From positions 4,828-68,827 of the IMG/VR virus record IMGVR_UViG_3300020578_000058: DNA of 64,000 bases. One strand, written 5' to 3'. The position numbers were made by a program, and so were the translations under genes. The notes beneath the pieces were generated by a model that was given only the letters and a program-made list of their open reading frames with translations, did not search any database and was not told where the DNA came from. Source of the stretch: a virus. Numbering within the stretch: position 1 is the stretch's first letter; each line of letters opens with the position of its first letter. Positions 26,195 through 61,402 of this stretch are shown here, one piece after another.

Positions 26195-27508
26195 ATGAAC
26201 CGCACCGCAGCCGAAGAAGTTCGTCTCGTCGCCTACTTCGGCAAGACGCCCGACCCCACGCCTTCGGCCAAGTCCCGCTACGAGTGGGAACTTGCCGGGG
26301 ACGACGCGCTCACCCCTGCCGCCGAAGCCGCTCTCGTGGACAACTTGCGGAAGCGCATCTTTGGGCAGCGCACCGTGGGGCTCGTGGTTCGCATTCCCTT
26401 GTTCGGGAAGTCTCCCGTTTCGTTCTCGGGGCTGACCCTGCAAGACCTTCCGAAGAAGTTGCAGGGTGAGGTGTCGAACCTCGTTGCACCTTCGGGGGGT
26501 TCGCGCACCGTGAGCCACCCCAACCCCACGAACCTTCCCGAAGCCCCGCAAGGCACCATGCTCCGCGAGTTCGCGGCACCTGCGCCCGACCCCGACAGCC
26601 TCACCTCGCGCACCACGAAGTTGGCGGCGGGCCTCCCTCACGGCTCTCCTCTGCGCCGGTTCCTCGTGGCGACCGTGAAGGCTGCGTGCCCCGGTCACCT
26701 TGGGAACCCCATGCAGACCCCGCCGCAGTTGAGCCGCGCAAGCGCGCCGGGCGTGTCGTGCGGTTCCTGCACCTACTTCTGCCCGACCCGCAATGTCTGC
26801 AAGGCGTTCGGGGACTTCCCGGTGTCCGCTGACATGGTGTGTGCGGCATGGCAGGCCGAGGGCGAAGCAGGCATGGGCCAGCCTTCCGAGTTCGGGCTGC
26901 TCACGGCGTCCACAAAGAGAATGGCAAAGGGCACCCCCCGCTCCTTCTTGGAGCAGAACCCGACCGCACAGGTCGAGGTCATGCCCGAAGCAGGTATCAC
27001 CGTCATTCGGTACAACGGCGCCAAGTCGGGCAAGCCCGCCGCAGCCGTCTACTCGGGCAAGAGCGACAGCCCCTTGTGGGACTACTTCTTCGGGTCCGAG
27101 AGTGCCCGCGAGCAGTACATTGCCGACCAAGTGGAAAAGAGCAAGGCCGCCATGTCTGCTCGGCAAGAGCGGGCACAGGCCAAGCGGGACTTCCAACACG
27201 GCTTGAAGGACGGCGACATTCTCTATTCGTCGTGGGGCTACGACCAAACGAACATCAACTTCTACGAGGTCGTCGGCGTCGTCGGCAAGCAGGTGCTTAT
27301 CCGCGAAGTCGAGTCGAAGGCCGTCCGACACGAGCGCGGCGCTGACTATGTGGTGCCGGTCCCCGGTCGATACACGGGTGCGGTCTTGAAGAAAATCCCG
27401 CAGAAGGGCTACCGCGACCAAGCGTATGTGAAGGTGACCACCTCGCAGAACGCCTACCCGTGGGACGGCAAGCCCAAGTACGAGACGGCAGGGGGCTTCG
27501 GCCACTAA
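26195..27508 (+). CDS. Multidomain hypothetical protein (internal cargo-leader motif, HiPIP-like Cys domain, C-terminal WGYDQTN domain)
   Basis: CGSCTYF...C...F...V.....CAAW, followed later by GDILYSSWGYDQTNINFYEV. Confidence 0.65.
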   Translation: MNRTAAEEVRLVAYFGKTPDPTPSAKSRYEWELAGDDALTPAAEAALVDNLRKRIFGQRTVGLVVRIPLFGKSPVSFSGLTLQDLPKKLQGEVSNLVAPSGGSRTVSHPNPTNLPEAPQGTMLREFAAPAPDPDSLTSRTTKLAAGLPHGSPLRRFLVATVKAACPGHLGNPMQTPPQLSRASAPGVSCGSCTYFCPTRNVCKAFGDFPVSADMVCAAWQAEGEAGMGQPSEFGLLTASTKRMAKGTPRSFLEQNPTAQVEVMPEAGITVIRYNGAKSGKPAAAVYSGKSDSPLWDYFFGSESAREQYIADQVEKSKAAMSARQERAQAKRDFQHGLKDGDILYSSWGYDQTNINFYEVVGVVGKQVLIREVESKAVRHERGADYVVPVPGRYTGAVLKKIPQKGYRDQAYVKVTTSQNAYPWDGKPKYETAGGFGH

Positions 27509-27552
27509 CCTTCCGCGTGGGTAGGGTGGTCCCGTAGGGGGGGGCGTGGAAG

Positions 27553-28152
27553 GTGCTGATCGCCGTTTCGGGAAACATCGGGGCTGGAAAGTCTACTCTC
27601 GCCAAAGCCTTATGTGAGCGAGGTGGGCTTCACCTCATTCCCGAGCCGGTTGAGGACAACCCCTACCTCGCGGACTTCTACGCCGACCCTGTGCGGTGGG
27701 CGTACCACGCGCAGACCTTCATTATGGCCGTCCGGCATGAGCAACAGAAGCGGGCACACGATTTCTCCCGGTCGGGGACTTCGTGCTTGCTCGACAGGTG
27801 CTTGCACGAGGACCGCATCTTCGCAGCCGTGGCCCGCGACAAGGGGTATTTGGCCCCAAGGGAGTGGAACACCTACGCGACCTTGCACCGGGCGTTGCTC
27901 GCGTCGGCGCCGCCTCCCGAAGTAGTGGTTTACCTTCGCACCACGCCCGAGGTCGCGCAGTCCCGTATCTCGCTACGGGGCCGCACCGAAGAAGCGACCA
28001 TCCCGCTCGACTACCTCGCGGCGCTTCACGCCGAGTACGAGCAATGGGCCGAGAGCATGGAACTCACGACCCGCGTGCTCGTCGTGGACGCTTCGGAGAA
28101 CTTTGCTGACGCCGACGCCGTGTGGGCCGAGGTTCAAGCCTTCCGGTTGTAG
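27553..28152 (+). CDS. Deoxynucleoside kinase
   Basis: GNIGAGKST P-loop, EPV, DRCLHED (ERS/DRS-like) and lid RISLRGR..E. Confidence 0.9.
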   Translation: MLIAVSGNIGAGKSTLAKALCERGGLHLIPEPVEDNPYLADFYADPVRWAYHAQTFIMAVRHEQQKRAHDFSRSGTSCLLDRCLHEDRIFAAVARDKGYLAPREWNTYATLHRALLASAPPPEVVVYLRTTPEVAQSRISLRGRTEEATIPLDYLAALHAEYEQWAESMELTTRVLVVDASENFADADAVWAEVQAFRL

Positions 28153-28649
28153 CGGGCGAGCAGGGCGCGCACGGCTTCTTCGTCCGAAGCGTTCTCAATG
28201 GCGTTCGCCAAGTCGTCGTCCCCTTCTTCGGGTTCGGGTTCCATGCCCCCATCCTCGTCCATGCCCCCATCTTCGTTGTCGAGTTCGTCCTCCTCGTAGT
28301 AGGCGAACCTGTCCTCCAAGACAGGTTCTTCGACGGGAAGCGGGGTCAAGGGTGCCGGGGGTGCTGCGGGCCTCGGAGCCGCGACCACGGGCTGCGCCGG
28401 AAGCAGGGCCAACAACCCCTTCAATGCGGCCACCTCTCCTGCAAGGAAGTCGGCACGGCTCTGCACCTTCTTGCGAAGGCTTTCCACCTCGTCGTGGATT
28501 GCCTTCACGCGCCCTGCGGCGTCCTGTTCAACCTCTGCGATTTTGGTGTCGAACTGTGCTTTGAGCGTGTCGAACTGCTGCGGCAGCGCGCCGCGCTCTT
28601 GCGTCAAGAGGTTGATTTGCTCGGTCAGGTAGGCGCGAAGGTCGGTCAT
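28134..28649 (-). CDS. Coiled-coil protein with acidic tail
   Basis: Heptad-like N-terminus, Pro-rich linker and D/E-rich C-terminus. Confidence 0.7.
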   Translation of the reverse strand: MTDLRAYLTEQINLLTQERGALPQQFDTLKAQFDTKIAEVEQDAAGRVKAIHDEVESLRKKVQSRADFLAGEVAALKGLLALLPAQPVVAAPRPAAPPAPLTPLPVEEPVLEDRFAYYEEDELDNEDGGMDEDGGMEPEPEEGDDDLANAIENASDEEAVRALLARYNRKA

Positions 28650-28652
28650 GGG

Positions 28653-29021
28653 CTAACACACTCCCGGTTTCACGAACGATACCCGTAGCCCGGCCCCCGC
28701 CCCTCCCCCGGTGTCGCTGAACAAGTCCACCTCTTGTTCTGCGCTAATTGTGAGCGATGTCAAGGGCTCCGTTCCCTGCATGACCCCGTAGAGCACAATG
28801 GCGTCCGAGAGGTACGAGGGGACGGTCACGGTGTAAGCGAACCGCCCCGTGTCTCCCGGCACCGCCGTCATTGGAGTCGCGGGGGGCACGAGCACCGTCT
28901 TGACGCCGTTCACGAAGTAGAAGGCATAGATAGTCGGGTCGGCGGGCACAACGGGATCTCCGGCCCCGTCGAGGAACAGGACCGTGAAAGTGAACGGTTG
29001 ACCAATGACCGCCTTCGCCAT
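28653..29021 (-). CDS. Small beta-sandwich hypothetical protein
   Basis: AAGGA upstream. Resembles the Ig-like N-terminal part of 40743-41639 (P..P......Y...G...L..P....P.......G.Y/F). Confidence 0.6.
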   Translation of the reverse strand: MAKAVIGQPFTFTVLFLDGAGDPVVPADPTIYAFYFVNGVKTVLVPPATPMTAVPGDTGRFAYTVTVPSYLSDAIVLYGVMQGTEPLTSLTISAEQEVDLFSDTGGGAGAGLRVSFVKPGVC

Positions 29022-29404
29022 GTTGGGTCAGTCCTTCTTGGCGCGGGCTTCCCACGCGGCCTTCGGCACCCAAGTCGCACCGTCCCACACCATGCCGTCG
29101 CGCTCCTCACCCACCGCTACGGAAGGCGCGTGGAGGTTCGGAAGGCTCGTTGACTTCGGGGCCGTGACGGACACGCTGCGCTTCAAGAAGGCCATGTTCT
29201 ACTCCTTTCCGACTACGGGAGCATAGCACCGCTACCGGCACAAAAACTTCTGCGGTTGCCCGCCTATGCAACCCTATATGGGCAAGGGCACCACGGCACG
29301 GGCCGCTCAACCTACGACACGATCCGTGCGAGTGTCCACCCCTCCTCCCGTCGCGCTTTCCCCTCGGGCTTCGCTCACACAATTCCTCCCAAGAGGTAGT
29401 CCAC

Positions 29405-32400
29405 ATGGCTACGCAGGACAAGAACCTGATCGTTCTCAACAGCGGTCAGTTGGAGAAGGCCGCCGCCACCGACACCATTCGGGTTTACAGCCTGACGGTG
29501 GACGCGGGCGCCGACATCACGGGCGACACCAAGATCACGGGTGATCTGGAAGTCACCGGCACCATTGTCAGCAAGGACACCGAGAACGTCGTCATCAGCG
29601 ATGCGTTCCTCGACCTTGCTTTCGGCAACACCACGACCACGCCCTCGGCGGGTGGTATCACCGTCACGATGAACCGTGCCTCGGGCTTCACGCTTGAGAC
29701 GGTCACGGCCTTCACGGCGGGTTCGGCTCCCACTACCCCCCCGACCTTCACCGTGTCGGGCGGCTCCACCGCTCTCGCGGCTGGCGACATTGTTGCCATC
29801 ACGGGTGCAACCGATGTGAACAACGACGGCTTGTTCGTCGTTGCGGGCGTTGCGGCTGGCGTCGTGACCATCAAGGGTATCGGCGGCACCTCCCCGAGCG
29901 GCTCTGTCCCCTTCGTGCAGAACCAGTTCACGGCGGGCACGGCGCAAACTGCTTCGGCCTACAAGGTGGACCTCTCGGCCTTCGCGTTTGCGGACGGCAC
30001 GGCCTCCTTCAAGGAGCCGGGTGGCGCTTCTTGGGGCAAGGGCACCTTCGTCACGGCCTACGCCTCGAACGCCACCGAGAGTGACTTCACCGGCAACGGC
30101 GATTGGGACTCGGCAGCGCAGACCTCCTTGCAGGAGGCGTATATCGTCGGCAACACCATCACCACGTCTGTTGGTGAGGGCGATGTTGTTGTTGCGGGCA
30201 CCGAGAAGTTGGATGTGACCGCCACGGGCGGCGTGTCCATCAGCACCATCCTCGACCTCAACGGCTCGATGGACGCCGATGTTACCACCTACGATGTGGA
30301 CGCCTCTGGCGCGTACACGGTCACGGCGGGCGCAGCGTCGAAGATCAACACCACGGCTGGGGACTTGACCCTCGACGCCGAGGCGGCGAGCCTCGTCCTC
30401 GACGGTGGTGAAGCCGCTGCCGACGCGGTGCGTATCGTCGCTTCCAACGCGGGCGGCGGTATCGACATCGACGCGGGCACGGCGGGTATTGCCCTCGACA
30501 GCACCGGGGCCATCAGCCTCGCTGCGGTTGGCGCTTCGGACTTCACGGTGGCGGGCAACCTCACCTTGGAGACGAGCGGCGCGGGCATCACCGATGTGAA
30601 GTCGGCTGCCGAAGTGCAGGTCACCACGCTCCTGCTCGATGTGAACGCCTCGGGCGCGGTCGAAGTGAACGCCGCTGCGGCTTCGCACTTCACGGTCGCG
30701 GGCGCTGCCCTCACCCTGTCCACCACCACGAGCGGCAACCTCGTTCTCGGCGCCGCTGGCAACATCGACGCCGACGCCGTGCAAGTCACCGTTGACGCCA
30801 CCAACTTGGTGTCCATCGGTGCCGGTGCCGCCTCCAACTTCACCGTGTCCACGGGCGACCTGTCGCTCACCGCCACGGCGTCTTCGGTGGTCATCACGGG
30901 CGGCGAGGCCGCTGCCGACGCCGTGACCATCACCGCTTCCAACGCGGCGGGTGGCCTCGACCTCAACGCGGGCACGGGTGGCATCACCCTCGACACCTCG
31001 GGCGCGTTGAGCCTCGACTCGACCGGCACCGCCTCCAACCTGTCGCTCACCGCGAACGACGCTGGCACCGCCACGTTGACCATCGCGGCGACCAACGCGG
31101 GTGCGGGCGTTGCCGACCTCGACATTGACGCGGACGGGGCCATCACCGTTGACGGTGCCTCGTTCAGCGTTGACGGTACGAGCGCGTCGAACATGACCGT
31201 GACGGGGGGCAACCTCACCGTCAGCACGGTCACGAGCGGTGTTCTCGCCGTCACGGCGGCGGGCAACCTCGACATGGACGCGGGTGGCGCCGTCACCCTC
31301 GACGCCTCCGGTGGTTCCATCAGCATCGGCGGCAACGCCAACGCCCACGGGATCAACATCGGCACGGGTGCGGCGGCTCGCACCATCACGGTCGGTAACA
31401 CGACGGGGGCCACCGCCCTCGATGTGAACCTCGGCACGGGTGGTATGACCGTTGACACGCAGTCCGGCGGGGCCATCAGCCTCGACGCGGTGGGTGCGGC
31501 CTCCAACTTCTCGGTTGACGGCGGCAACCTCACCCTGTCCACGGCCACGAGCGGCAACCTCATCCTCGCCTCGGCTGCTGCCGTGGACATGGACGCGGCG
31601 ACCGATGTGACCGTTGACGCGGGCGGGCTCATCAGCCTCGACGCGGCGACCTCCTCCAACTTCACCGTCACGGGCTCGGGTCAGGACTTGACCCTCGCGG
31701 TGGCGGGCGGCGGCGCGCAGAAGTTGGTGGCTTCTTCGGCGGGTACGGGCGCGGACGCGGTTCGCGTCAACGCCTCGGCAGGCGGTATCGACATCGACGC
31801 TTCGGCGGGCGGCATCACCGTGGACACCACGGGCGTTCTGTCCCTCGACGGCGGTGACTTCACCGACCTGACCATGAGCGCCAACAACGCCGCGGGCAAG
31901 ACCCTCACCATCGAGGCCAAGAACGCGGGTGCGGGCACCGCCAACATCGCCGTGAAGGCCAAGAGCGTCATCCAGTTGGGCGACTCGTCCACCTACTCCT
32001 CGGCGTTCATTCAAGCGCAGCACTTCCTCGTGTTCCAGCAGGCCGCAGGCTTGGATGTCGAGGCGGGTGAGGCGTTGGCGCAGGGTGATGCGGTTGTCGC
32101 CAAGTGGGACGCGGGTGCCTCCAAGGTCCGCTACTTCAAGGCGGCGAACAACGCCGGTTCCGACTTGGAGCGCAATGTCCACGGCATCGCGCAGAACCCG
32201 GCGGGTGCTGCGGGCAACATGATCAAGATGGGCTCCGTGCCCGGCGTGCAGATGACCACCGCTCTCACCAGCCTCACCAGCGCGGACATCGGCAAGCCCC
32301 TGTTCCTCGGAACGGGTGGTGCGCTCTCGGTCACCCCGCCGACCGCTTCGGGCACCTCGGTGTTCCGTGCGGGCTTCGTGATCAGCCACAACGGCGGTCC

Positions 32401-32455
32401 CGGCGGCAAGGCCATTGTGCTGTTCCAGCCGCAGTTCATCGCCAAGATCCTCTGA
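29405..32455 (+). CDS. Long fibre protein (repetitive beta structure) with C-terminal capsid-cement/head-fibre-like domain
   Basis: 1,016 aa, G/A/T/S-rich, with recurring ASNFTVxxGxLTLST and GGIxIDAGTGGITLD units. C-terminus reads AGEALAQGD...GKPLFLGTGGALSVTPP. Confidence 0.7.
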   Translation: MATQDKNLIVLNSGQLEKAAATDTIRVYSLTVDAGADITGDTKITGDLEVTGTIVSKDTENVVISDAFLDLAFGNTTTTPSAGGITVTMNRASGFTLETVTAFTAGSAPTTPPTFTVSGGSTALAAGDIVAITGATDVNNDGLFVVAGVAAGVVTIKGIGGTSPSGSVPFVQNQFTAGTAQTASAYKVDLSAFAFADGTASFKEPGGASWGKGTFVTAYASNATESDFTGNGDWDSAAQTSLQEAYIVGNTITTSVGEGDVVVAGTEKLDVTATGGVSISTILDLNGSMDADVTTYDVDASGAYTVTAGAASKINTTAGDLTLDAEAASLVLDGGEAAADAVRIVASNAGGGIDIDAGTAGIALDSTGAISLAAVGASDFTVAGNLTLETSGAGITDVKSAAEVQVTTLLLDVNASGAVEVNAAAASHFTVAGAALTLSTTTSGNLVLGAAGNIDADAVQVTVDATNLVSIGAGAASNFTVSTGDLSLTATASSVVITGGEAAADAVTITASNAAGGLDLNAGTGGITLDTSGALSLDSTGTASNLSLTANDAGTATLTIAATNAGAGVADLDIDADGAITVDGASFSVDGTSASNMTVTGGNLTVSTVTSGVLAVTAAGNLDMDAGGAVTLDASGGSISIGGNANAHGINIGTGAAARTITVGNTTGATALDVNLGTGGMTVDTQSGGAISLDAVGAASNFSVDGGNLTLSTATSGNLILASAAAVDMDAATDVTVDAGGLISLDAATSSNFTVTGSGQDLTLAVAGGGAQKLVASSAGTGADAVRVNASAGGIDIDASAGGITVDTTGVLSLDGGDFTDLTMSANNAAGKTLTIEAKNAGAGTANIAVKAKSVIQLGDSSTYSSAFIQAQHFLVFQQAAGLDVEAGEALAQGDAVVAKWDAGASKVRYFKAANNAGSDLERNVHGIAQNPAGAAGNMIKMGSVPGVQMTTALTSLTSADIGKPLFLGTGGALSVTPPTASGTSVFRAGFVISHNGGPGGKAIVLFQPQFIAKIL

Positions 32456-32544
32456 TCTTTCGGTGAACTGAAACCAGCGGGGGTGGGGGGTGAGAGCCCT
32501 CCATCCCCGTTCGGTTTATGGGTATTGTCCACCTCGGAGGCTAC

Positions 32545-33048
32545 ATGGCTACGCCCGCTACCCAACCTGTCGCCAACAAGCAGATGCGTGTCGGGCTCGG
32601 AGAAGCCATTCAACGCCTCTTGCGAGTTGAGGCCCGTCTTATGAACGGCTTTGCCGCCGTCGAAGAAGAAGACCTCGCGCAGCGACAACTCATTCTTGAC
32701 GCGCTCAACCTCACGCAACTTGACCTCGGGTTCGACTGCGACGGGGACGACATTCCCGACACGGTGGACATTTTTGAGAAGGCGGCGCAGACCTCGTGCT
32801 GCCGCATTGTCACCGAGGCCCCCAAGCAGAAGAAGGCGAAGGGCAAGTCCCGTGTGGCCGAGGAGAAGGCGGCGGCTCCTGCGCCCGTCTTTGAGGTGGT
32901 GGCCCCCGCACCTGCGCCCCCCGAACTTCCGCCGGTTCCCGCCCCGGCTTCCGAGGCGCAAGCAGACACCAACCCCACCGCCAAGAAGCAACCAAAGAAG
33001 TCCAAGGGCTTCTTCGGAACGCTGTTCGGCGGCTCCAACGACGAGTGA
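32545..33048 (+). CDS. Hypothetical protein (possible fibre chaperone)
   Basis: GGAGG RBS, DCDGDDIPD Ca-binding-like loop and Pro-rich tail. Confidence 0.55.
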   Translation: MATPATQPVANKQMRVGLGEAIQRLLRVEARLMNGFAAVEEEDLAQRQLILDALNLTQLDLGFDCDGDDIPDTVDIFEKAAQTSCCRIVTEAPKQKKAKGKSRVAEEKAAAPAPVFEVVAPAPAPPELPPVPAPASEAQADTNPTAKKQPKKSKGFFGTLFGGSNDE

Positions 33049-33056
33049 GGTGACCC

Positions 33057-33392
33057 GTGCCGACCTTCCTGTTTCTTTGTGCGGCCTACGGCTTGTGCTT
33101 CGGGCTCATGAACGACAAGGCACCTCTCGTGCCCTTGCTTCGCAAACTTCCGCTGTTCCCTGACGCGGAGGGGCGGACCTTCTTCTCGCGCATGTTCGCA
33201 TGTCCCTACTGCACGGGGTTCCATGCAGGGTGGCTCACTTGGTTGCTCCTGCGCCTGCCGGGACACCTCGTAGCAGGGGGCCTCGACCCTCTCGTGCTCG
33301 GGGGTGAGGTTCTTGCTCACGCCTTTGCGGCGAGTGCGTTCTGCTACCTTGCGGACATTGTGGCCCAATGGGTCGAAGAACAGACTTCCTGA
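33057..33392 (+). CDS. Small membrane protein (DUF1360-like, CPYC motif)
   Basis: Hydrophobic segments and MFACPYCTGFHAG. Confidence 0.6.
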   Translation: MPTFLFLCAAYGLCFGLMNDKAPLVPLLRKLPLFPDAEGRTFFSRMFACPYCTGFHAGWLTWLLLRLPGHLVAGGLDPLVLGGEVLAHAFAASAFCYLADIVAQWVEEQTS

Positions 33393-33410
33393 CCCTTACC
33401 GGGTGCGCGC

Positions 33411-33710: not shown

Positions 33711-33711
33711 C

Positions 33712-40730: not shown

Positions 40731-40742
40731 AAGGAGCACTCC

Positions 40743-45038: not shown

Positions 45039-45157
45039 GGGGTAGGCTCCTCAAAGGGCGGGCCGGTTCGTTGGCCGTTCTATACGGCACAGAGAGGTGG
45101 ACGCCCTCGATCCGCCCCCCCGGTTTCTCTACCCGTCCCTTCAAGGAGACTTCACCC

Positions 45158-46009
45158 ATGTCCGACACCGTGCTTCGTCAACGGCTCATTCGTGTCGCTT
45201 CGCAGTTGCCGAAGGGCAGCGCGGAGCGTCGGCAAGTTCTCGCCCTCCTCGCGCCGGACACCCTGCGGAGCAAGGTCGCCGTCAACCAAAAGACGCAGGA
45301 CTTCGTGGAGTGGGTGGTCAACACCGACCCGGTTCCTATGTCCGAGGCCGAGATTGTGAAGTTCGTGAAGGGCACGCTCCGCATGGAGATCAAGCCCCCC
45401 ATTCAGAAGCGTGAAGGTCCGCGCTTTCAACCGGGTGACCGGGTGAAGGTCCAGAAGGACAAGCACAAGGACGAGGCGACTTCCGGCCCGTACATCGAGT
45501 TCAACGGCAAGATTGGTACGGTGGTTACCGTTGAGGGGCAGGACGCCCTCGTGAAGATGGACAGCGGCCCGTCCGAGCCCGTCCGCTTCATTGGTGCGCT
45601 CAAGCCCCGTGGTGTCGGCCTGTTCAAGTACACCCCCGCCTTCGTCATGGAGGGCTCCGTGGCGGTGGAGATGGTCTACTACATGGACGCCGAGGCCGAT
45701 GTGAAGGAGGAGCAGGCGGTCGTGGTTGAGCAGTACATGGGCCGTGCCCGTCAGGGCGAGAAGCGGTCCATGAACTACTACACGGGCCACCTGTTCAATG
45801 CGCGGCTCAATCAAGCGGGTCAGGTCTACTTCCAGATGTTCCCGCAGCAGCGCGTCGAAGTGGACCCCGAGAGCGAGGGGGGTTTCTTGGCCCGCTCGTT
45901 CAACCCGTCGAAGGGCAAGGTGCTCTACATCGGTCGCCTCAACACCGACCGCCCGACCGGGTGGGAGAAGGAGTTGGCCGACATGCGTGCGAAGGCGGGC
46001 GTCCCGTAG
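45158..46009 (+). CDS. Cargo-leader protein with KOW/SH3-like domain
   Basis: AAGGAG RBS, N-terminal LIRVASQLPKGSAERRQVLA leader and FQPGDRVKV...FNGKIGTVV. Confidence 0.7.
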   Translation: MSDTVLRQRLIRVASQLPKGSAERRQVLALLAPDTLRSKVAVNQKTQDFVEWVVNTDPVPMSEAEIVKFVKGTLRMEIKPPIQKREGPRFQPGDRVKVQKDKHKDEATSGPYIEFNGKIGTVVTVEGQDALVKMDSGPSEPVRFIGALKPRGVGLFKYTPAFVMEGSVAVEMVYYMDAEADVKEEQAVVVEQYMGRARQGEKRSMNYYTGHLFNARLNQAGQVYFQMFPQQRVEVDPESEGGFLARSFNPSKGKVLYIGRLNTDRPTGWEKELADMRAKAGVP

Positions 46010-49064: not shown

Positions 49065-49753
49065 CCGAACTGCGCGTGACCGAACTGCGCGTGGAGTGCA
49101 TGGCTGACCGCGCAGAAATGCCTGACCTCGGCCTCTCCTTGCGCCGAGGCCAAGTGGCGTGGGTGCCTGCCGACAGCGGTGCCAAGTCTGCTTGCCTTCG
49201 GGCTTTGCGTGACATTCGCGCCGTGTCGGTAGTATCAGCGCAGAGGTGTTCCGCCATGCGAAGTCCGCCACCCCCCTCCTTCCGCCTTGCGCGGAAGGGC
49301 ACCACGCCCCGAGTGCCGACCAGCGGCCCTGTACCCGTGGTTGTGCAGGGGGGTGTTCCCGTCGAAGAACTGGACGCGCGTATTGAGCAGGCCGTCGCAG
49401 GAGCCGTGGACAAGTTGGCCGACCGCCTTGTGGCCGCGCTCGGGCAGCAGCGGACTGCACCTGCAAGCAGCGCGCCTCTCAATGAGGAAGCCCTCTCGCG
49501 GGCCGTGGCGGACGCTGTATCGCAGGCTCTTTCGCAGCAGGTGGGCGGCGCCCTTCGCTCGGGAGGTGGGGGCTCTCGGGCCTTGGTGAGCGGCCCCGAA
49601 GAACCTGTTTACATTCCCTCGGGTATCGTCTCGTCCGAGACGGCCACCGACCTTCAAGTGACGGCGCAGGCTACGGACGCGGGCGACCTTGCCGGTGCCG
49701 CGTCTGCCCTTCGCAAGACCCGCACCCGCAAGACCACAGGAACCCCCGAATGA
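49061..49753 (+). CDS. Hypothetical protein, translationally coupled to the actin-like ATPase
   Basis: ATGA overlaps on both sides; begins with a 15-bp duplication (TELRV x2). Confidence 0.6.
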   Translation: MTELRVTELRVECMADRAEMPDLGLSLRRGQVAWVPADSGAKSACLRALRDIRAVSVVSAQRCSAMRSPPPPSFRLARKGTTPRVPTSGPVPVVVQGGVPVEELDARIEQAVAGAVDKLADRLVAALGQQRTAPASSAPLNEEALSRAVADAVSQALSQQVGGALRSGGGGSRALVSGPEEPVYIPSGIVSSETATDLQVTAQATDAGDLAGAASALRKTRTRKTTGTPE

Positions 49754-50769
49754 GCACCGACAAGAGCGACAAGACCAAGCCCAACCGTGGGGTCGGGCTC
49801 GACCTCGGGACAATGAACATTGTCTCGGCTCGCTCTCGCAGCGGCAAGGTGGACTTCTCTCGCATCCGAGACGCCTTCCTCGACCTCGACATCAGCGCCA
49901 AGAAGATGCTCAAGTTGAGCGGCGTGTCCTACATTGAGCGCGGTGAGAACATCGTCGTCATCGGTGACGCCGCTATGGAAATGGCGAACGTCTTTGGTCG
50001 GGAGGCCCGTCGCCCTCTGTCCCGTGGCTTGGTGGCCGCAGGTGAAGTCGAAGCGTTGGAAGTCCTCGGGGTCATGGTCAAGAATGTCCTCGGCGCCCCC
50101 GTGGAGCCGAACGAGGTCTGCTACTTCTGCGTGCCCGCTGCGCCCGTGGACGAGGACCGGGATGTGGTCTACCACCGGGGCGTCTTTGAGCGCATTGTGA
50201 CCGAGTGCGGCTACAAGGCCATCTCCTCCAACGAGGCTATGGCGATTATCTACTCCGAGACGGCCAACGAGGGCTTCTCGGGCCTCGCCATCTCCTTCGG
50301 CAGCGGCATGTGCAATGTCGCCCTTGCCGTCAACGGCATTGAGGGATTCTCGTTCTCCGTTGCCCGTGGGGGCGATTGGATTGACGAGGGTGCAGCCCGC
50401 GCCGTGGGCAGCACCCGCTCCCGTATCTGTGCCTTGAAGGAGAAGGGCTTCGACTTGCTCGCGCCCGTGGGCCGGGAGCAGGAGGCGCTTGCCCTCTACT
50501 ACAAGAGCCTCATCGAGTACTGCTTGGAGACGACCGCCCGCGAGTTCCTTCGCATCAAGGACAAGTTCTCGCTTCCCAAGGCTGTGCCCTTCGTGGTGTC
50601 GGGCGGGACGAGCCTGCCCACTAACTTCGTGCCATTCCTGACCTCGGTGTGGAGCCGCATGAAGAAGAAGTTCCCGTTGGAGGTGAGCGAGGTTCGCCAC
50701 GCCTCCGACCCCATGAACGCCGTCGCTCGGGGTTTGCTCGTGCTCGCCCTGCAAGAGTACGACGACTGA
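49750..50769 (+). CDS. Actin-like ATPase (MreB/MamK/ParM superfamily)
   Basis: Phosphate-1 GLDLGT, connect-1 NEAMA, phosphate-2 SFGSGMCN, GGDWID, adenosine VVSGGTS and connect-2 PMNAVARG. Confidence 0.88.
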   Translation: MSTDKSDKTKPNRGVGLDLGTMNIVSARSRSGKVDFSRIRDAFLDLDISAKKMLKLSGVSYIERGENIVVIGDAAMEMANVFGREARRPLSRGLVAAGEVEALEVLGVMVKNVLGAPVEPNEVCYFCVPAAPVDEDRDVVYHRGVFERIVTECGYKAISSNEAMAIIYSETANEGFSGLAISFGSGMCNVALAVNGIEGFSFSVARGGDWIDEGAARAVGSTRSRICALKEKGFDLLAPVGREQEALALYYKSLIEYCLETTAREFLRIKDKFSLPKAVPFVVSGGTSLPTNFVPFLTSVWSRMKKKFPLEVSEVRHASDPMNAVARGLLVLALQEYDD

Positions 50770-53600: not shown

Positions 53601-53644
53601 TCGGAACTCCGTGCCCGCTCGGCGGGACAGGTGGGGGTGTGAGA

Positions 53645-53678: not shown

Positions 53679-53719
53679 ACGGGTAAGGTTTTTCGTCCTT
53701 CGCTTCATGGAGCAGGGTC

Positions 53720-54211: not shown

Positions 54212-54343
54212 TAGCGTCCCTATACGGGGCAGGAAGGAAAGAACTCCCCCACGAGGGGACGGCTACGACCTATACCGCCGTGCTTGCACTTCTCGGCCCT
54301 CTCGCACCGTGAGCGGGTTCGCACCACTTCTCCGAGGTTCCCA

Positions 54344-57300
54344 ATGGCCTTCCCCGGCAGCGTCTATGCCCCTCCCGGCGTTTACACGCAGACCAACTTT
54401 GAGTCCCCCGTGCAGGGCATTGCCGCGAACCTCCGCGTTCCGGTGTTCATTGGCACCGGCAACGAGATCCTCGCGCAGTCGAACCTTGAAGTCGTGCGCG
54501 GTTCTTCCGCGAGCGTTGACCAGCGGGTTGTCGAGGAGGACGAGACGGGCCGTGCGGTCACCTTCGTCTCCCCGAGCGGGTCGGTGACCCTCGGTGCTTT
54601 CAATGGCACCTATGACCGTGTGCAGGTGCGGCACTTCCCCATCGTGACCGGCAACGGCACGGGGACGACGGCGACGGACACCTCCTCGGTGAGCGTCACT
54701 GTGAACGGCGACCCCGTGGTTGTCCTGTCCATGAACGCGGCCCTTGGCATTCTCAAGTTGAGTGTGGCCCCGGCTGCGACCGACACCGTGCGCGTCACCT
54801 ACTACTTCGACCGCACCGACACGCTCATCACCGATGACCTCTCCGAGCAGGTGACGCCCGAGGCCCCCGTGCTCTACGGCGCGGTGGGGCAGAACTACAC
54901 CATCACGACGGGCAGCAACGACACGCTCTCCTTCACGGTGGACGACACGGACACGGTGAGCGTCACCATTTCTGCTTCTCCGAGCGGCGGGTGGACGGCG
55001 GCGCAGGTGGCGGCGTTCATCAACAGCGCGGCGACGGGCACGAGCCTCGTGGCCGGTACGGCGACCAACAACTTCGGGCAGGTGGTCCTCACGCTGACTG
55101 CCGACCGCGATGTGACGGTCGGGAACGGGACCGCGAACACGACCCTCGGCTTCTCCTTCGGGGACACGACGGCGCGCAACAAGGTGTTCTACACCTTCCA
55201 GCAGCCCATTGTGGACGGCTCGGGCGGCGGCGTCACCACGACCGACCCTTCCGATGTGACGGTGAAGGTGGACGGCGTGCAGGTCATCCCCTCGGCGGTG
55301 GACGGGCAGTCCGGTGCCGTGACCCTGCCCTTCGCCCCCGAGGTTGGGGCCACGGTCACGGTGGAGTACTACTTCAACTCGTGGCAGGACACCTTCGACT
55401 ACTTGGCGAACCGCAACATCACGGACATCACGCTCTGCGGCGTGGCGCCCGACCGTTCGGACTATGTGGACGGAACGGACTTCGTGCTCCAAGACGACAA
55501 GATTGTTTGGGGCACGGCGGTTCTTGTGGCGTCCGGCACGCACACCTCGGGCGCTACTTACTTGGACGAGTCGCAGGTGACGCCGACCCTCGTGGACGCC
55601 CGGCAGTACCTCGCCCCTTGTGCGACCGTGAGCGCGACCACCTTCACGCTGCCTTTGCAGCCCACGACGGGCAACGGGCGTGACACCCCGCTCGGCACCG
55701 CGACCTACAACAAGGTCGCCAACGGGCGCATCGACCTCCCGACGAACCGCCCCGACCTCGTGTACGCCTATTGGGGCTACTCGGTCGAGGACGCGCTCGA
55801 CCGTGGCCGCGTGACCGTGACCAAGGTGGACAGCGCCACGAGCACCATCACGCTCTCCGAGCCGGTGCCCACGGGTGCGACGGTCTACGCGACTTTCTAC
55901 TACAACACCATCGTTGACCAAGCCTACACGCTCACGAGCGTCACGCCGGGTCCGAGCGGCGTTGGCACCTACACCGTGAGCAACGAGGACGGCACGCTTC
56001 TCGTGACCCCGACCTCGGGCAGCAAGTCCGCCGGGCTTGCCACCATTGAGTTGGTGTTTCCGAGCGGCTCCGAGAGCCTGCCCGACTTCCGCTACGAGAC
56101 GCCGTTCGACGCCGACCTGTTCACGGGAGCCGTCGAAGAAGATGTCACGGTGACCTTCGCATCCAAGGACGCGACCCCCGCCAAGTACGCGGTCCCGTCG
56201 AGCGGGCCGTACTACGCGGTGTCGGGTTCTTCCGACCGCTTCCGCTTGAAGGTGGACGGCTCTGACCTCGTGAGCGGTGCAGCGGGTCTGAACCTGTCTC
56301 GTCCTCTCGCGGGGGTCACGGGGCTCGGCTTCCCGGCGCAGTTGGTCGGCAACGAGGCCGTGTACGACGCTCCGAGCGGTGGCGCTTCCTTTGAGGTGGA
56401 CGCGACCAACAACACGGTCAACATGGAAGTGGACGGGGTGCTCGTGCAGGCGGTGGCCGACGACAACGCCTCGGCTACGCTGGCCGACTTCGCGGCTGCA
56501 ATCAACCGCGCCGCTTCGGGCGAGGTGGACACGGCGGCGGGCGGCGGCGCTTCGACCATCACCCTTGCGGCCTCCGCGTCGTCGCAGGACGACTTCTATG
56601 TGGGCTACAAGGTGCATGTGACGGCGGGTGCCGCCATTGGCGACATTCGCACCGTGACCGCCTACAACGGCACCACTCGGGTCGCCACGGTGACGCCCGC
56701 TTGGACGGGTGCTCCCGGCGGCGGCGACACCTACTCGGTGTACGACGAAGCCACCCTTCCGCAGTATGTGACCGGCACGGCGTTCACCTCTCCTGTGGTC
56801 ATTTCGGCGGGCGACTACGACCAACTCCGGTTCGTCTACTCGGGCGATACCTCGGCGTCCTTGGGCACGCTCACCGCGACCCTCACTCCTGGCACCTACA
56901 CCTCCTCTGCGGCTCTTGCGGCGGCGGTGCAGACGGCAATTGACGCCGCCATCGCGGCGGCTCCTCCCGCTGCCTACGGTGCATTCTCGGTGGTGGTCGC
57001 TGCGAACACCTCGGGCAAGTTGGTGTTCTCGCTCGTGCGCGACCCGACCGACACGAACGGCTACTTGGAGTTCGTCACCAACGCGGCCCCGGCGCGGGAC
57101 TTCGCGGTTCTTGCGGGCATCTCCGCTGCAAGTGCTGCGAACGGCGCACAGGCCAAGTTGGTGAACGGGGCCATTGCTCGTCACTTTACGGTTGGCGCTG
57201 CTCCGCTCCTGTACGACCGCTTGGTGCTCCGTTCTCGGTTGGTGCCGGGCAGCGGCAGCGTGGACGGTCAGGGTGTTCTTGCCGTCACGCAACTCAAGCA

Positions 57301-59542
57301 ACTCGGCGGCACCGGGGCTTCGCTCGCGGGCCTTACCGCCAACGAGAACGCCTACGCCGGGTTGAAGGGCACCATTCTGCCCGCCACCCTGCTCGGGACG
57401 GTCGGCCTTGCGGGCGGGCAGGTTCCGGCTGCGGCCTACGGTGACGCCCGCGACGGTCAGCCCGTGGTGACCTTCTTCGCGGCGGGCGGCACGAGCGCGC
57501 AGAACAACGAGTTCAAGTTCACCTTCGACAATGTGCCGGTGACGGTGGTGTTCACCGACGCGGCGGGTGCGGCTATCCCCTCGGGTGGCAGCGCCGATGT
57601 TCCGCTCGGTCCTGCAACGACGGCCAACACCGTTCTCAACCAAGTGGCGGCGGCTATGGCTTCCGTTGGCTTGGGTGCGAGCGCGGCAGCGGTGGTGTCG
57701 GCGGGCTTGGTGCGGCAGGAGGGCGCAAGCATTCGCTTCCGCTCGGCCCTGTCCACCCCGACCTCGGGCATCGTGGTCGGCACGGCGAACGCGAACGACA
57801 CCCTCGGGTTCGGCGCGGGCGACAGCGCGGAGCGCACGAACCTGCAAGTCGAAGTTCTTGTCTCGGCGCTCATGGCGCACTTCGACGGCTCGGTGGCGAA
57901 CTCGCTGCTCAACTGGTCGTCGGGCGGCGCGGCGACGTACTTCGCGGGCGAGGCTCTTGCCAAGCGCGTGACGGACGCCAGCAACGCCGAGTACCTCTAC
58001 TTGCAGTCGTTGGGCAACGCGGGCTTGGGCACGACTTCTTCGGTCGAGTTCGCGGCTGCTACTTCGGCAAGCGTCACGCTTCCCGGCGTCGGCTTGGGGG
58101 TCATCGCGGGCGACGGGGCGACGGGCGAAGCGGCTATCAGCGGCTTCTATGTCACCTCGACCGACATTGTGAGCGGCTCGGGCACGGCCAACACCTCGTA
58201 CCTCAACAGCGGCACGGGGCAGGACGGCGTGGTGGGGCAGACCTACCGTGACGCGGTGACGGGCTTGACCTTCACGGTTCTTCCGCGAGCGGGCAACCTC
58301 GCCTACCCGAGCGGGCAGTTCTTCACCATCGTCGCTCGCAAGTTGGTCACGACTGACGCCAACACCCCGGTCAACACGCTTCCCGGTGTGGCCCTCACGG
58401 TGAGCAACACGCTCGGTGTGGCGGCGGGGGACACGGCGACGGTCACGACCTACGCGCGCAGCGGGTCGCAGCCTGCGGTGGGGGATGTCTACTATGTCTC
58501 CTACACCTACACGAAGCAGGACTACAACACGGCCCTCTACACCAAGTTGTCGGCTATTGAGGCTGCTTACGGCCCCAACAGCCCGCTCAACCCGGTGGTG
58601 CTCGCCTCCTACCTCGCCATTCTCAACGGCGCGGTGCTGGTCGGCATCAAGCAGGTGCAGAAGGACACGGACGCCGACAACAACGGCGAGTTCGATACGG
58701 CCTCCGAGAGCGCGTACCTCGCGGCCATTGACGACCTTGAAGGGCAGTTGCCGGGGGGCATCCTCCCCGACATTCTGACCCCGCTCAAGGGCGACAGCGT
58801 GAACCTGTTCCAGTACCTCGCCAAGCAATGCGACATTCAGAGCAGCATTCGCTACCGTGCCGAGCGCACGGGCGTAGTCGGGTTCTCGGCGGGCACGCAG
58901 CCCACGGCGGCAGGCAACGCGGCGGTCGCGGTCGGTCGCACGCGCCTTCGGTGTGTGTACCCCGACATTGCGAACCTCACGCTCTCCCGTGCGGACGGTG
59001 CGACGGACACCTACTTGGTGGACGGCACCTTCCTTGCGGCGGCTCTCGTGGGCTCGCTCGTGTCCCCGACGACCGATGTGGCTACCCCGTGGACGGGTCG
59101 CCGCCTGTTCGGCTTCGACCGTATCGCCCGCATCCTCGACGCGGTTCAGCAGAACCAAGTCGCGGTCAAGGGCATCACGATCCTTGAAGATCGCAACCCG
59201 GTCATTCGCGTTCGGCAGGGCTTCTCTACCGACATGACGAATGTGCTGACCCGTACCCCGACCGTCATCACCATTGCGGACGAGGTGCAGCAGCAGACCC
59301 GCGCCACGCTCGACAGGTTCATCGGCATCAAGTTCTTGCCGGGGGTCACGTCGCAGATCGAGGGGCAGGTGAGCAACACGCTCAAGCAGTTGGTCGCCGC
59401 GCAGATCATCACGGCGTACACCGGGGTCAAGGCCAAGGTGTCCGAGGACGACCCCACGGTGGCCGAGGTCGAGGCGTACTATCAGCCCGTGTTCCCACTT
59501 TTGTATATCGTGGTCACATTCAACCTGCGGTCGAGCCTCTAA
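54344..59542 (+). CDS. Tail sheath protein, very large (~1,732 aa)
   Basis: N-terminal YAPPGVYTQT...VPVFIG and C-terminal sheath core (RAERTGVVG, VYPD, GITILE, VEAYYQPVFPLLYIVVTFNL), with ~1,200 aa of inserted domains. Confidence 0.9.
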   Translation: MAFPGSVYAPPGVYTQTNFESPVQGIAANLRVPVFIGTGNEILAQSNLEVVRGSSASVDQRVVEEDETGRAVTFVSPSGSVTLGAFNGTYDRVQVRHFPIVTGNGTGTTATDTSSVSVTVNGDPVVVLSMNAALGILKLSVAPAATDTVRVTYYFDRTDTLITDDLSEQVTPEAPVLYGAVGQNYTITTGSNDTLSFTVDDTDTVSVTISASPSGGWTAAQVAAFINSAATGTSLVAGTATNNFGQVVLTLTADRDVTVGNGTANTTLGFSFGDTTARNKVFYTFQQPIVDGSGGGVTTTDPSDVTVKVDGVQVIPSAVDGQSGAVTLPFAPEVGATVTVEYYFNSWQDTFDYLANRNITDITLCGVAPDRSDYVDGTDFVLQDDKIVWGTAVLVASGTHTSGATYLDESQVTPTLVDARQYLAPCATVSATTFTLPLQPTTGNGRDTPLGTATYNKVANGRIDLPTNRPDLVYAYWGYSVEDALDRGRVTVTKVDSATSTITLSEPVPTGATVYATFYYNTIVDQAYTLTSVTPGPSGVGTYTVSNEDGTLLVTPTSGSKSAGLATIELVFPSGSESLPDFRYETPFDADLFTGAVEEDVTVTFASKDATPAKYAVPSSGPYYAVSGSSDRFRLKVDGSDLVSGAAGLNLSRPLAGVTGLGFPAQLVGNEAVYDAPSGGASFEVDATNNTVNMEVDGVLVQAVADDNASATLADFAAAINRAASGEVDTAAGGGASTITLAASASSQDDFYVGYKVHVTAGAAIGDIRTVTAYNGTTRVATVTPAWTGAPGGGDTYSVYDEATLPQYVTGTAFTSPVVISAGDYDQLRFVYSGDTSASLGTLTATLTPGTYTSSAALAAAVQTAIDAAIAAAPPAAYGAFSVVVAANTSGKLVFSLVRDPTDTNGYLEFVTNAAPARDFAVLAGISAASAANGAQAKLVNGAIARHFTVGAAPLLYDRLVLRSRLVPGSGSVDGQGVLAVTQLKQLGGTGASLAGLTANENAYAGLKGTILPATLLGTVGLAGGQVPAAAYGDARDGQPVVTFFAAGGTSAQNNEFKFTFDNVPVTVVFTDAAGAAIPSGGSADVPLGPATTANTVLNQVAAAMASVGLGASAAAVVSAGLVRQEGASIRFRSALSTPTSGIVVGTANANDTLGFGAGDSAERTNLQVEVLVSALMAHFDGSVANSLLNWSSGGAATYFAGEALAKRVTDASNAEYLYLQSLGNAGLGTTSSVEFAAATSASVTLPGVGLGVIAGDGATGEAAISGFYVTSTDIVSGSGTANTSYLNSGTGQDGVVGQTYRDAVTGLTFTVLPRAGNLAYPSGQFFTIVARKLVTTDANTPVNTLPGVALTVSNTLGVAAGDTATVTTYARSGSQPAVGDVYYVSYTYTKQDYNTALYTKLSAIEAAYGPNSPLNPVVLASYLAILNGAVLVGIKQVQKDTDADNNGEFDTASESAYLAAIDDLEGQLPGGILPDILTPLKGDSVNLFQYLAKQCDIQSSIRYRAERTGVVGFSAGTQPTAAGNAAVAVGRTRLRCVYPDIANLTLSRADGATDTYLVDGTFLAAALVGSLVSPTTDVATPWTGRRLFGFDRIARILDAVQQNQVAVKGITILEDRNPVIRVRQGFSTDMTNVLTRTPTVITIADEVQQQTRATLDRFIGIKFLPGVTSQIEGQVSNTLKQLVAAQIITAYTGVKAKVSEDDPTVAEVEAYYQPVFPLLYIVVTFNLRSSL

Positions 59543-59586
59543 GGGCAGCCTCACAGTAGCAGGAAGCCACTTGCTAATATAGTGGG

Positions 59587-59632
59587 TTGATAGTAGACCT
59601 CCATTCGGGTACACTCCCGAGTGGAGGTCTAC
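59587..59632 (+). promoter_or_regulatory. Sigma70-like promoter embedded in an inverted repeat that also covers an RBS
   Basis: TTGATA-N17-TACACT. Arms GTAGACCTCCATTCGGG / CCCGAGTGGAGGTCTAC flank the TACACT. Confidence 0.6.
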
Positions 59633-59638
59633 CTGCTC

Positions 59639-59719
59639 ATGGAGTGCCCTGTCTGTCAGTTCTCGGTCACCGACCTGCGTGGCCTTGCCGCGCACCGCTT
59701 CTCGACAGGTAGGCGGTAG
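59639..59719 (+). pseudogene. Truncated zinc-finger ORF (26 aa), probable remnant of a deleted insertion
   Basis: MECPVCQFSVTDLRGLAAHRFSTGRR* is a C2H2-like start lacking the second His; GGAGG RBS. Confidence 0.45.
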
Positions 59720-59780
59720 TGGTTCTATTCCCCGCGCACGGGCGCAGAGCCGCTGAACCCGCCACAGGGGAGTACCCATC

Positions 59781-60230
59781 ATGTCCACGACTGCCCTCAC
59801 CGCCTCCGAACGGGCCGTCCTCCTCCGCTACGCTTCGTCTCTCCCCAAGGGGAGCGAGACGCGCCGCGCCATTGTCGCAGCCGTGAAGGTCGCGGGCTGG
59901 ACGGACTTCATGAACTTCGTCCAAGGCTCGGACGCGAATGAATGCTTCCGCGAGGCTCAAGAAGACGCGGCTGCGGAGCATCGTGCGGATTGGGAGTCCG
60001 ACTACGACGAGGACGACGATTACGAGGCGTCCTACACCGGGACCATCGCAGAGAAGTCCAGGTTCGTGTTCCGTAGCCGAGAGCCTATGTCGAAGGCTGA
60101 CGCCTATAAGTTCGCAGACAAGGACATCAAACACAACGACAAGTGGGGGCCTGCGTTCGCTATTCCTGTTGCTGACCCCTCGGGCAAGCGCACCATTGGC
60201 TACTTGTTCTACGGTTACGCGTCGAGTTGA
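59781..60230 (+). CDS. Cargo-leader protein, unknown C-terminal domain
   Basis: GGGAG RBS; leader LTASERAVLLRYASSLPKGSETRRAIVAAVKVA. Confidence 0.75.
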   Translation: MSTTALTASERAVLLRYASSLPKGSETRRAIVAAVKVAGWTDFMNFVQGSDANECFREAQEDAAAEHRADWESDYDEDDDYEASYTGTIAEKSRFVFRSREPMSKADAYKFADKDIKHNDKWGPAFAIPVADPSGKRTIGYLFYGYASS

Positions 60231-60241
60231 GGCACCTCCAC

Positions 60242-61402
60242 ATGACCCTCACCGCCTCCGAGCGTGCTGACCTTCTCCGGTACGCTTCTTCTCTCCCCGT
60301 GGAGAGCGAAGTGCGACGGGCCGTGCTTGCGAGCCTGTCCCGTATTGCAGCGGGAACCGAGGACGACATTCGGCAGTACCTACCCGTCTTGAAGTCGGGC
60401 TACGCGGGCTATGTGCGGGCCATTCGTGACGCGGAAGCGCGTGCCTTGTCGGGCGACTCTATGGTTGTTCGACATTGGGCCAACCAACCGTGGTTGGACA
60501 TTATCGAAAGCGGCGGCAAGGTCGTGGCCGGGGTCTTGTCCGTCCGCAGCATCCCCGACAAGAGCGCGAAGCCCTTGGAGATGGTCTACCGGCTCATGGA
60601 AAACAGCCGCCGTATGCCGCAGGACATTTACAAGTGGTGGGAGGACAACGGCAAGCGGGTCAAGTTTCTCATTGAGGCCGCAGAGAACTGGCCCGCCAAG
60701 TCCGAAGGCACCGATGAGTTGTTCACGCTCGGGCCGTTCAAGGTCCACAACACCGTGGGCGCCAAGGGCGCAGAACTTGACTCCTTGAAGAAGGGCTTGG
60801 AGCGCGTCGAGAAGGCCGTGAAGTCAAACCCCGTGCCCGGCTTCGCCCGCGTGCTCTACGGGGATGTGCATGTCGTGCCGCGCATCACGAAGGCCCACCA
60901 TGCCGCGTGGTACTACCCCGGTGACGACAGCCTCTACTTGCGGCGTGCGAAGTCCACGGGCATTGACGAGGTTCACGCTCTCATCCACGAACTCGGCCAT
61001 AGGTACTGGCACAAGTTCGCTGCCGAGCCGCAGAAGAAGGCGTGGGCTTTGCACCACTCGCGCGCTGCGAGCAAGACCGTCGAGGTCGAACTCCCCAAGG
61101 TCGGGGACGAACTTCCCGTCGCCATCAAGGGCGTCAAGAACCGCTACCCCACCATTGTCGCCGTGGAGCCGGGTGTGTTCCGCTACGCGATTGACATTGA
61201 CGGGAAGCCCTACACGAACTCCATTTCGACCAAGACCGTGTACGACTTCTATCGGGGGCAGCAGAAGGCCACCAAGAACTTCCCGACGAAGTACTCGGCC
61301 ACGAGTGAGCAAGAGCACTTCTGCGACTCGGTGGCGATGCTCGCGCTGGGCAACCTGCCCGACGAGTTCGCGGTTCCGTTCAACGCCGTGTGGAACCCCT
61401 GA
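60242..61402 (+). CDS. Cargo-leader protein with zincin-type metallopeptidase domain
   Basis: Same leader (LTASERADLLRYASSLP.ESEVRRAVLA). HELGH (HExxH) with downstream YSATSEQEHFCD, like anthrax-LF-type/phage zincins. Confidence 0.75.
   Translation: MTLTASERADLLRYASSLPVESEVRRAVLASLSRIAAGTEDDIRQYLPVLKSGYAGYVRAIRDAEARALSGDSMVVRHWANQPWLDIIESGGKVVAGVLSVRSIPDKSAKPLEMVYRLMENSRRMPQDIYKWWEDNGKRVKFLIEAAENWPAKSEGTDELFTLGPFKVHNTVGAKGAELDSLKKGLERVEKAVKSNPVPGFARVLYGDVHVVPRITKAHHAAWYYPGDDSLYLRRAKSTGIDEVHALIHELGHRYWHKFAAEPQKKAWALHHSRAASKTVEVELPKVGDELPVAIKGVKNRYPTIVAVEPGVFRYAIDIDGKPYTNSISTKTVYDFYRGQQKATKNFPTKYSATSEQEHFCDSVAMLALGNLPDEFAVPFNAVWNP

Follow-up and report, generated by a model that had tools for sequence, protein, structure and literature searches.

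The stretch of DNA analyzed here, referred to below as the window, comprises 64,000 nucleotides (64 kb; positions 4,828 to 68,827) of the 68.8-kb IMG/VR virus record IMGVR_UViG_3300020578_000058, for which CheckV gives a completeness of 15%. Four of its open reading frames (ORFs) share a helix-loop-helix segment of about 35-40 residues, hereafter the tag. An earlier note on this DNA had described the segment as a leader on unrelated enzymes and as a putative signal for loading cargo into the capsid. The four segments are present where that note had placed them, all on the plus strand. Against a profile (A4) made from 37 tag copies, three of them score strongly and the fourth weakly (lengths in amino acids, aa):

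59781..59897, plus strand: tag copy 1, the first 39 residues of the 149-aa protein 59781-60230, with KVAG at its end; 59.2 bits
60242..60364, plus strand: tag copy 2, at the N-terminus of the 386-aa HExxH protein 60242-61402; 55.4 bits
45158..45277, plus strand: tag copy 3, at the N-terminus of the 283-aa protein 45158-46009; 50.3 bits
26603..26686, plus strand: tag copy 4, weak, inside the 437-aa protein 26195-27508 at residues 137-164; 13.4 bits

Copy 1 reached 88 bits against another tag profile (A3), and copy 4 has an E value of 0.0012 among the window ORFs. No window ORF beyond these four scores with the tag profile. In the six-frame translation, the pattern LP.[GE]S..RR is found four times, every time within one of the four ORFs; 300 first-order Markov resamples averaged 0.17 occurrences and reached 2 at most. 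Copy 4 is truly internal because the G+C content at third codon positions is coding-like from the first codon on (0.78), the 135 residues before it being coding. A Cys-rich stretch comes after it, and residues 263-430 at the C-terminal end of the protein match phrog_37844. This gene lies immediately 3′ of the major capsid protein (MCP) gene, the same position that tagged genes occupy in relatives.

All four window copies end in K/R-x-A (KVA, RIA, KVA, and KAA), as the earlier note had stated, and each is followed by a different domain. The names given to these domains fared less well: the KOW/SH3 label corresponds to sub-threshold Pfam matches alone (E 0.009-0.13), and the HExxH protein at 60242 has no family match. 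In the latter protein, the HELGH motif is invariant in 11 homologues, and the AlphaFold 2 (AF2) model has a mean predicted local distance difference test score (pLDDT) of 58, too poor for a fold search. The family of the 45158 protein, about 285 aa long, retains the tag across many contigs (P0074-P0096), and in one protein (P0085), the 45158-type tag is joined to a different C-terminal part.

The N-terminal copies have the consensus M-S-R/K-T-L-T-A-S-D-R-x-x-L-I-R-L-A-S-S-L-P-K-G-S-E-E-R-R-A-I-L-A-G-L-x-K-x-A. The tag is basic, with near-invariant Arg residues and invariant Ala and Pro positions. N-terminal copies are conserved from the initiator Met as far as K-x-A, with an abrupt stop thereafter, and internal copies often have KKA[S/A] just before them. 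Beyond the window, the K-x-A ending is a tendency only, with K in 44% and A in 50% of 193 N-terminal metagenome copies, and the boundary of the window-type tag has no conserved Glu. The AF2 model of the 149-aa protein 59781-60230 (P0003; overall pLDDT 85.7) places the two tag helices at residues 8-19 and 26-35 (pLDDT about 81), followed by a low-confidence linker at residues 36-40, at the KVAG junction, and then by the cargo domain at a pLDDT above 95.

A small helical module of this kind could be a nucleic-acid-binding domain of the ribbon-helix-helix (RHH), helix-hairpin-helix (HhH), or HeH/SAP type, tethering the proteins that carry it to DNA. The basic character and the near-invariant Arg residues would suit such a role, as would a size and a helix, G-S loop, helix layout that we take to resemble RHH, HhH, and HeH/SAP motifs. 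The sequence searches argue the other way. The models for Rho_N (PF07498), SAP (PF02037), and HeH (PF12949) find no match in the record itself at E ≤ 10, while they do match in control genomes. When 37 isolated tags were compared with Pfam at E ≤ 10, no family was matched consistently and Rho_N, SAP, and HeH were not among the matches; RHH and HhH families were absent from these matches and from those of the four window proteins at E ≤ 1. A sequence search of the Protein Data Bank (PDB) found no relative of the tag, the best hit (E 0.15, 16 residues of mitochondrial NADH dehydrogenase) being due to chance. The ESM Atlas returned only generic helical hairpins for tag residues 1-42, and tblastn of the 42-aa tag against cultured phages gave no match at E ≤ 10.

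The phenomenon is far larger than the window alone could reveal. The record itself has four copies of the tag, and five related viral records have three to seven copies each. Among the hits of a word-based search with the 149-aa protein were small metagenome proteins about 85% identical to the tag over their first 40 residues and unrelated beyond, and an earlier 13-tag profile found 82 longer proteins. Run against 1.84 billion representatives of metagenome protein clusters (50% identity), the 37-tag profile matched 1935 clusters at E ≤ 1e-3 and 993 at E ≤ 1e-10. We then assembled 230 tagged proteins from the earlier searches and from the top 150 of the 1935 by total score, a choice that favors multi-copy proteins. 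With the tag masked, clustering of the rest at E ≤ 1e-5 left 103 unconnected groups. The profile search that the earlier note had proposed, with many unrelated C-terminal domains as the supporting outcome, was therefore strongly positive, the 103 groups being a lower bound on the number of unrelated kinds of cargo. Pfam recognized only 8 families in 125 tagged proteins, none of which spans the tag; those in the cargo include pentapeptide repeats, a beta-solenoid, DUF2958, DUF3846, an L5 gp82-like family, and a VP2-like motif. The PHROGs matched by tagged proteins carry no description. Because most of the cargo has no known family, its designation as enzymes is mostly unverified. Among the few enzymatic-looking cargo proteins is one (L007 3116-4072) in which a domain resembling a papain-like Cys peptidase by eye is followed by an internal tag.

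The tag is not confined to the N-terminus, as a leader in the strict sense would be: the 343 copies divide into 200 N-terminal, 102 internal, and 41 C-terminal ones. Where a protein has a single tag, it is N-terminal in 127 of 136 cases, and 94 of the 230 proteins have two or three copies, some of them in tandem. Among them are proteins of 500-930 aa that begin with a tag, have another inside with a Cys motif after it, and finish in a distinct C-terminal tag. Small K/E/D-rich linkers have one tag at each end, and such linkers are found 3′ of the MCP gene; one protein of 87 aa (P0239) consists of two tags and nothing else. ParB-like proteins (recognized by eye from DGHHR) carry a C-terminal tag. 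A DNA-binding domain could also stand in tandem or anywhere in a protein, and the ParB-like and pentapeptide-repeat proteins supply some cargo related to DNA.

These positions bear more directly on the possibility that the tag addresses nothing and is a mobile N-terminal cassette spread by recombination, which might, for example, serve expression or the start of translation, or be a neutral domain that stabilizes. Such a cassette would explain why the tag mostly begins at the initiator Met and why cargo families exist in tagged and untagged forms. We consider it very improbable, given that internal and C-terminal copies cannot be expression modules, that multi-copy proteins exist, and that conservation at the protein level is strong over the 1935 clusters, with invariant Arg, Ala, and Pro.

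A second form of the tag came from LR745208.1, an uncultured phage of 485 kb that has no window-type tag. The ORF 3′ of its MCP gene starts with a similar two-helix peptide, which recurs at 11 places genome-wide; in the 8 of the 11 that were read, the peptide lies at or near the N-terminus of an unrelated ORF. Alignment of the two tag profiles with hhalign (31 columns, 89% probability, E 2.3e-6) identifies them as homologous variants. The loop of the second variant is three residues shorter and lacks G-S, and its second helix contains prolines, which speaks against a DNA contact that depends on the loop. A scan of IMG/VR with the second variant gave 86 confirmed stretches, with 110 copies in 79 loci, 81 of them with Met at the start of the model. 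The cargo of this variant falls into 69 groups among 89 cargo sequences, and several large contigs have four to six copies each.

The two variants meet on one family of cargo, that of the protein with tag copy 1:

59898..60230, plus strand: cargo domain of 59781-60230, function unknown, with conserved YTGTIAEK, WGPAFA, and C-terminal GYLFYGxASS

Homologues of this domain carry the window-type tag (P0003), the second or LR type (P0013), half a tag, other N-terminal domains, or no tag. The tagged forms all end in K-x-A-G, and all seven untagged forms start with MG at that same Gly. Cleavage after K-x-A and removal of the initiator Met would yield an identical mature N-terminus. As far as sequence comparison goes, this family shows the tag to be exchangeable, support for a swap being limited to P0003 compared with P0013 and to hub proteins of the AGCEKLP type. 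Two variants on one cargo family are unexpected for a generic DNA binder. Together with the searches above, this makes a DNA-binding role, for which there is no positive support, improbable in our view.

The cargo domain itself (homologues P0005-P0035) is small, widespread in phages, and confidently modeled by AF2. A fold search with the P0003 model found nothing in the PDB at E ≤ 0.001 and, in BFVD, two uncharacterized phage proteins only. We also looked for orthologues of the window cargo under a swapped tag in LR745208.1, and tblastn of the four window proteins against its tagged ORFs gave nothing; an SH3-like resemblance of L103, seen by eye, was dropped after this empty search.

The genes for the head and tail in the window provide the setting in which the tag has to be read:

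10257..12179, plus strand: terminase large subunit TerL (phrog_2, E 8.6e-21)
13372..15075, plus strand: portal protein (phrog_16240, E 7.7e-31)
21144..22619, plus strand: 491-aa homologue of prohead (head maturation) proteases, extended at the C-terminus by about 200 aa (tblastn)
22609..24195, plus strand: acidic, E/Q-rich scaffold-like protein between protease and MCP, start codon uncertain
24429-25142: 237-aa ORF between protease and MCP, after the scaffold-like ORF
25158..26033, plus strand: MCP, 291 aa (phrog_2522, E 4.7e-53)
54284..59542, plus strand: giant tail sheath, 1752 aa (phrog_2839; tblastn match to the Tunturi_5 sheath gp326)

The protease homologue has no Pfam family and, by tblastn, is 38% identical to gp331 of Tunturiibacter phage Tunturi_5, named head maturation protease, and 36% identical to gp19 of Bacillus phage G. 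Both ends of the scaffold-like protein are homologous to the ORF at the same place in LR745208.1, and the protein is probably the scaffold. The MCP is 85% identical to that of LR745208.1, 49% to that of Tunturi_5, and 40% to gp27 of phage G. It is matched by 2067 clusters at 90% identity, on contigs of up to 520 kb. Judging from these MCP relatives, the contig sizes, and the abundance of the MCP, the window belongs to an abundant megaphage lineage related to phage G, and the tag is limited to one lineage of such phages. The G+C content of the window is 63-67%, and a megablast of 22 kb against phages gave no match. Tag-like stretches seen by eye in the scaffold-like protein, in the C-terminal extension of the protease, and in the N-arm of the MCP were discarded, since the profile does not score them even at E ≤ 1000.

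The distribution of the tag around the MCP gene points to the head. Among 536 IMG/VR stretches, the best 80 (loci L011-L090) encode MCPs that are 88-99% identical at the amino acid level. These 80 loci contain 28 tag copies, 27 of them on the strand of the MCP gene, and 26 of the 28 fall in the first 1.5 kb 3′ of the MCP stop codon. The tag density there is 0.26 per kb, compared with 0-0.013 per kb in the remaining flanks, which total about 700 kb. Tags within 1.5 kb past the MCP occur in 16 of the 59 loci with enough sequence. The slot 3′ of the MCP holds different cargo in different phages, its occupant in the window being 26195-27508. More generally, the flanking genes vary between loci, despite the extraordinary conservation of the MCP.

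The boundary motif may offer a second link. In the scaffold-like protein of the window, [KR]xA[GAS] occurs 9 times against 2.4 expected, and none of 2000 shuffles reached 9. The corresponding figures are 11 against 3.0 for the scaffold-like protein of LR745208.1, 9 against 2.3 for gp332 of Tunturi_5, and 14 against 3.4 for the Tunturi_5 protein named DNA ejection protein. The terminase, portal, sheath, and MCP show no such enrichment. This pattern of motif counts is compatible with a protease site. A multi-omics preprint on phage G finds its particles to contain many non-structural proteins, with 55% of 69 ORFs for nucleic acid metabolism detected (10.1101/2024.12.16.628780). By analogy with these particle proteins, heads of the present lineage may likewise carry many enzymes.

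Explanations in which the tag serves as an address are, as a group, well supported. Each protein that bears it would be brought to one common, presumably phage-encoded partner. The destination we tentatively favor, at a little under an even chance, is the interior of the prohead, with the tag as a portable docking module. Tagged proteins would be drawn to the scaffold core or the capsid interior of the assembling prohead and so end up inside the giant head. Proteins with a single, mostly N-terminal tag would be the cargo, and long low-complexity proteins with two to four tags, often N-terminal, internal, and C-terminal ones, could act as multivalent hubs of an internal core. For N-terminal tags, K-x-A|G/A/S would be the probable site at which the prohead protease frees the cargo, and injection into the host could follow. 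The earlier interpretation is thus partly supported, by the tag on many unrelated proteins, the sharp boundary, the presence of a protease gene, and the clustering after the MCP, and loses the strict N-terminal leader.

Several observations weigh against a head destination. The 102 internal and 41 C-terminal copies misfit a removable N-terminal signal. The three strong window copies are far from the head genes, two directly after the sheath and one at 45 kb, and the tagged genes of LR745208.1 are dispersed from 15 kb to 433 kb and not restricted to the head region. Neither Tunturi_5 nor phage G has any copy of the tag. Three relatives with an MCP about 88% identical (G006 and G007, both rated 100% complete, and G008, rated 73%) have no tag at E ≤ 0.01. 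Homologues of the zincin (HExxH) cargo that bear no tag are encoded in LR745208.1 (359 aa, 37% identical) and G006 (619 aa). As for the boundary motif, gp21 of phage G shows no enrichment of [KR]xA[GAS], and the counts have to be read knowing that the motif was chosen post hoc and that the shuffle control ignores local low-complexity runs. The tag-free relatives with a near-identical MCP further imply that the MCP alone is not the receptor and that the system is dispensable, which weakens the MCP as a candidate for sole receptor.

The tag could also carry a different address: a phage structure or compartment inside the infected cell, the tail, or an assembly that the tagged proteins form among themselves. 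In the last version, the tags may bind each other, multi-tag proteins being the scaffolds and those with a single tag their clients. A different address would account equally well for copies of every placement, whether N-terminal, internal, C-terminal, or tandem, and also for the 87-aa protein made of two tags, the linkers tagged at both ends after the MCP gene, and the tag-free relatives; the dispersed genes of LR745208.1 likewise speak for it. The actin-family protein in the window (PF25216, Volactin, E 4.7e-72) is a hint of organized intracellular structures. The tight clustering just 3′ of the MCP gene nevertheless points to the head, and no candidate compartment protein was identified, so that we regard another destination as somewhat unlikely.

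Returning to the prohead reading, a complete modular head-loading system is a possibility that we hold with less confidence than docking in the prohead itself. In such a system, the tag would work at any position and in at least two variants, on dozens of proteins per genome and more than 1900 clusters, with a multi-tag core, release at K-x-A|G, and delivery to the host.

The closest known counterpart is the capsid targeting sequence (CTS) of phage T4. PMC5694885 describes it as an N-terminal peptide of 10-20 residues by which internal proteins are held at the prohead core, which gp21 cuts off after Glu and which can package foreign proteins (the source citing Mullaney and Black). Like this CTS, which is found on IPI-III and Alt, the tag is a short peptide with a sharp boundary, common to otherwise unrelated proteins of one phage. 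Set against that account of a strictly N-terminal peptide cut after Glu, the tag is longer, a two-helix element of about 35-40 residues. Internal and C-terminal copies exist as well, up to three or four tags can be present in one protein, the boundary is K-x-A and not x-x-E, and there are at least two homologous variants. Packaging is established for the T4 CTS as that source presents it; for the tag, it is a prediction. For phiKZ-like giant phages (SPN3US, phiKZ, and 201phi2-1), the same source describes many inner-head and ejection proteins that are loaded into the head via N-terminal propeptides cut by the prohead protease. Paralogues there have identical N-termini, and the propeptides are mostly longer than 100 residues and cut at A/S-x-E (PMC5694885). 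Unlike these propeptides, which on that account belong to paralogous families, the tag is a single short module found with at least 100 unrelated families.

Among capsid-like shells outside phages, encapsulins are credited with a "dedicated cargo loading mechanism" in PMC8346489. Their cargo-loading peptides resemble the tag in being short peptides on diverse cargo, and they bind the inside of an HK97-fold shell. The setting of the tag is a phage, and encapsulins are cellular compartments without DNA; the likeness is drawn from description. Encapsulin cargo-loading peptides can sit at either terminus and are extended, not being known as helical hairpins. A helical parallel is the coat-binding helix-turn-helix with which the P22 scaffolding protein ends. 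This small basic helix-loop-helix docks to the coat protein within the procapsid, and foreign cargo has been loaded by means of it. Again compared by description, this coat-binding element differs from the tag as a single C-terminal copy on one protein. In the dockerin-cohesin system of cellulosomes, one small docking module is found on many unrelated proteins along with multivalent scaffolds, and the types match by species. This is an analogy only, dockerin-cohesin pairs being extracellular and calcium-binding and having a different fold, and no cohesin-like receptor was identified. A literature search of limited coverage found no comparable tag in huge phages.

If head loading is correct, a simple sequence rule would predict the packaged, and probably injected, proteome of uncultured megaphages, and thousands of proteins of unknown function would become prime candidates for host takeover and counter-defence. 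It would extend the idea of the T4 CTS to a structurally different, position-independent, and multivalent tag, and phage heads would gain a conceptual tie to the way encapsulins take up their cargo. In practical terms, a short tag functional at either terminus could be used to bring proteins into large capsids. Even with another destination, a portable docking module on more than 1900 clusters would amount to an undescribed protein-sorting code in phages.

The window holds further genes of note. The actin-family protein (49750-50769, plus strand, 339 aa) matches the Pfam model over its full length and is encoded inside the structural gene block. About 1 kb 3′ of the portal gene, past two small minus-strand ORFs, the 1223-aa protein 16132-19803 (plus strand) combines a PAP2 phosphatase domain (E 6e-16) with the catalytic core of a eukaryotic-type topoisomerase IB (E 3e-22); its N-terminus matches phrog_2859, a PHROG also matched by six multi-tag hub proteins. 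In the head gene block, two genes past the MCP, 27553-28152 (plus strand) encodes a thymidylate-kinase-like P-loop protein (phrog_761, E 1e-27). The sheath, which lies directly upstream of the tagged genes 59781 and 60242, is unusually long, its ends being homologous to the 1204-aa Tunturi_5 sheath with a large insertion between them. In LR745208.1, a 1229-aa ORF (L093 21074-24763) lies directly 3′ of the MCP gene, where other relatives have a tagged gene; by eye, repeated segments resembling helix-turn-helix motifs, a part similar to methyltransferases, and a Cys-rich tail can be made out in it.

Finally, a late motif, GTTCTATAC, had been reported upstream of three of the tagged genes. It is found upstream of 45158 (at 45077) and of 59781 (at 59722) and not upstream of 26195. 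With at most one mismatch, it occurs seven times in the window, compared with 2.3 expected, always on the plus strand:

19786, 38446, 45077, 55186, 58690, 59722, and 61981, plus strand: GTTCTATAC sites with at most one mismatch

Several of these sites lie 18-80 bases upstream of gene starts, and the motif may be a promoter element.

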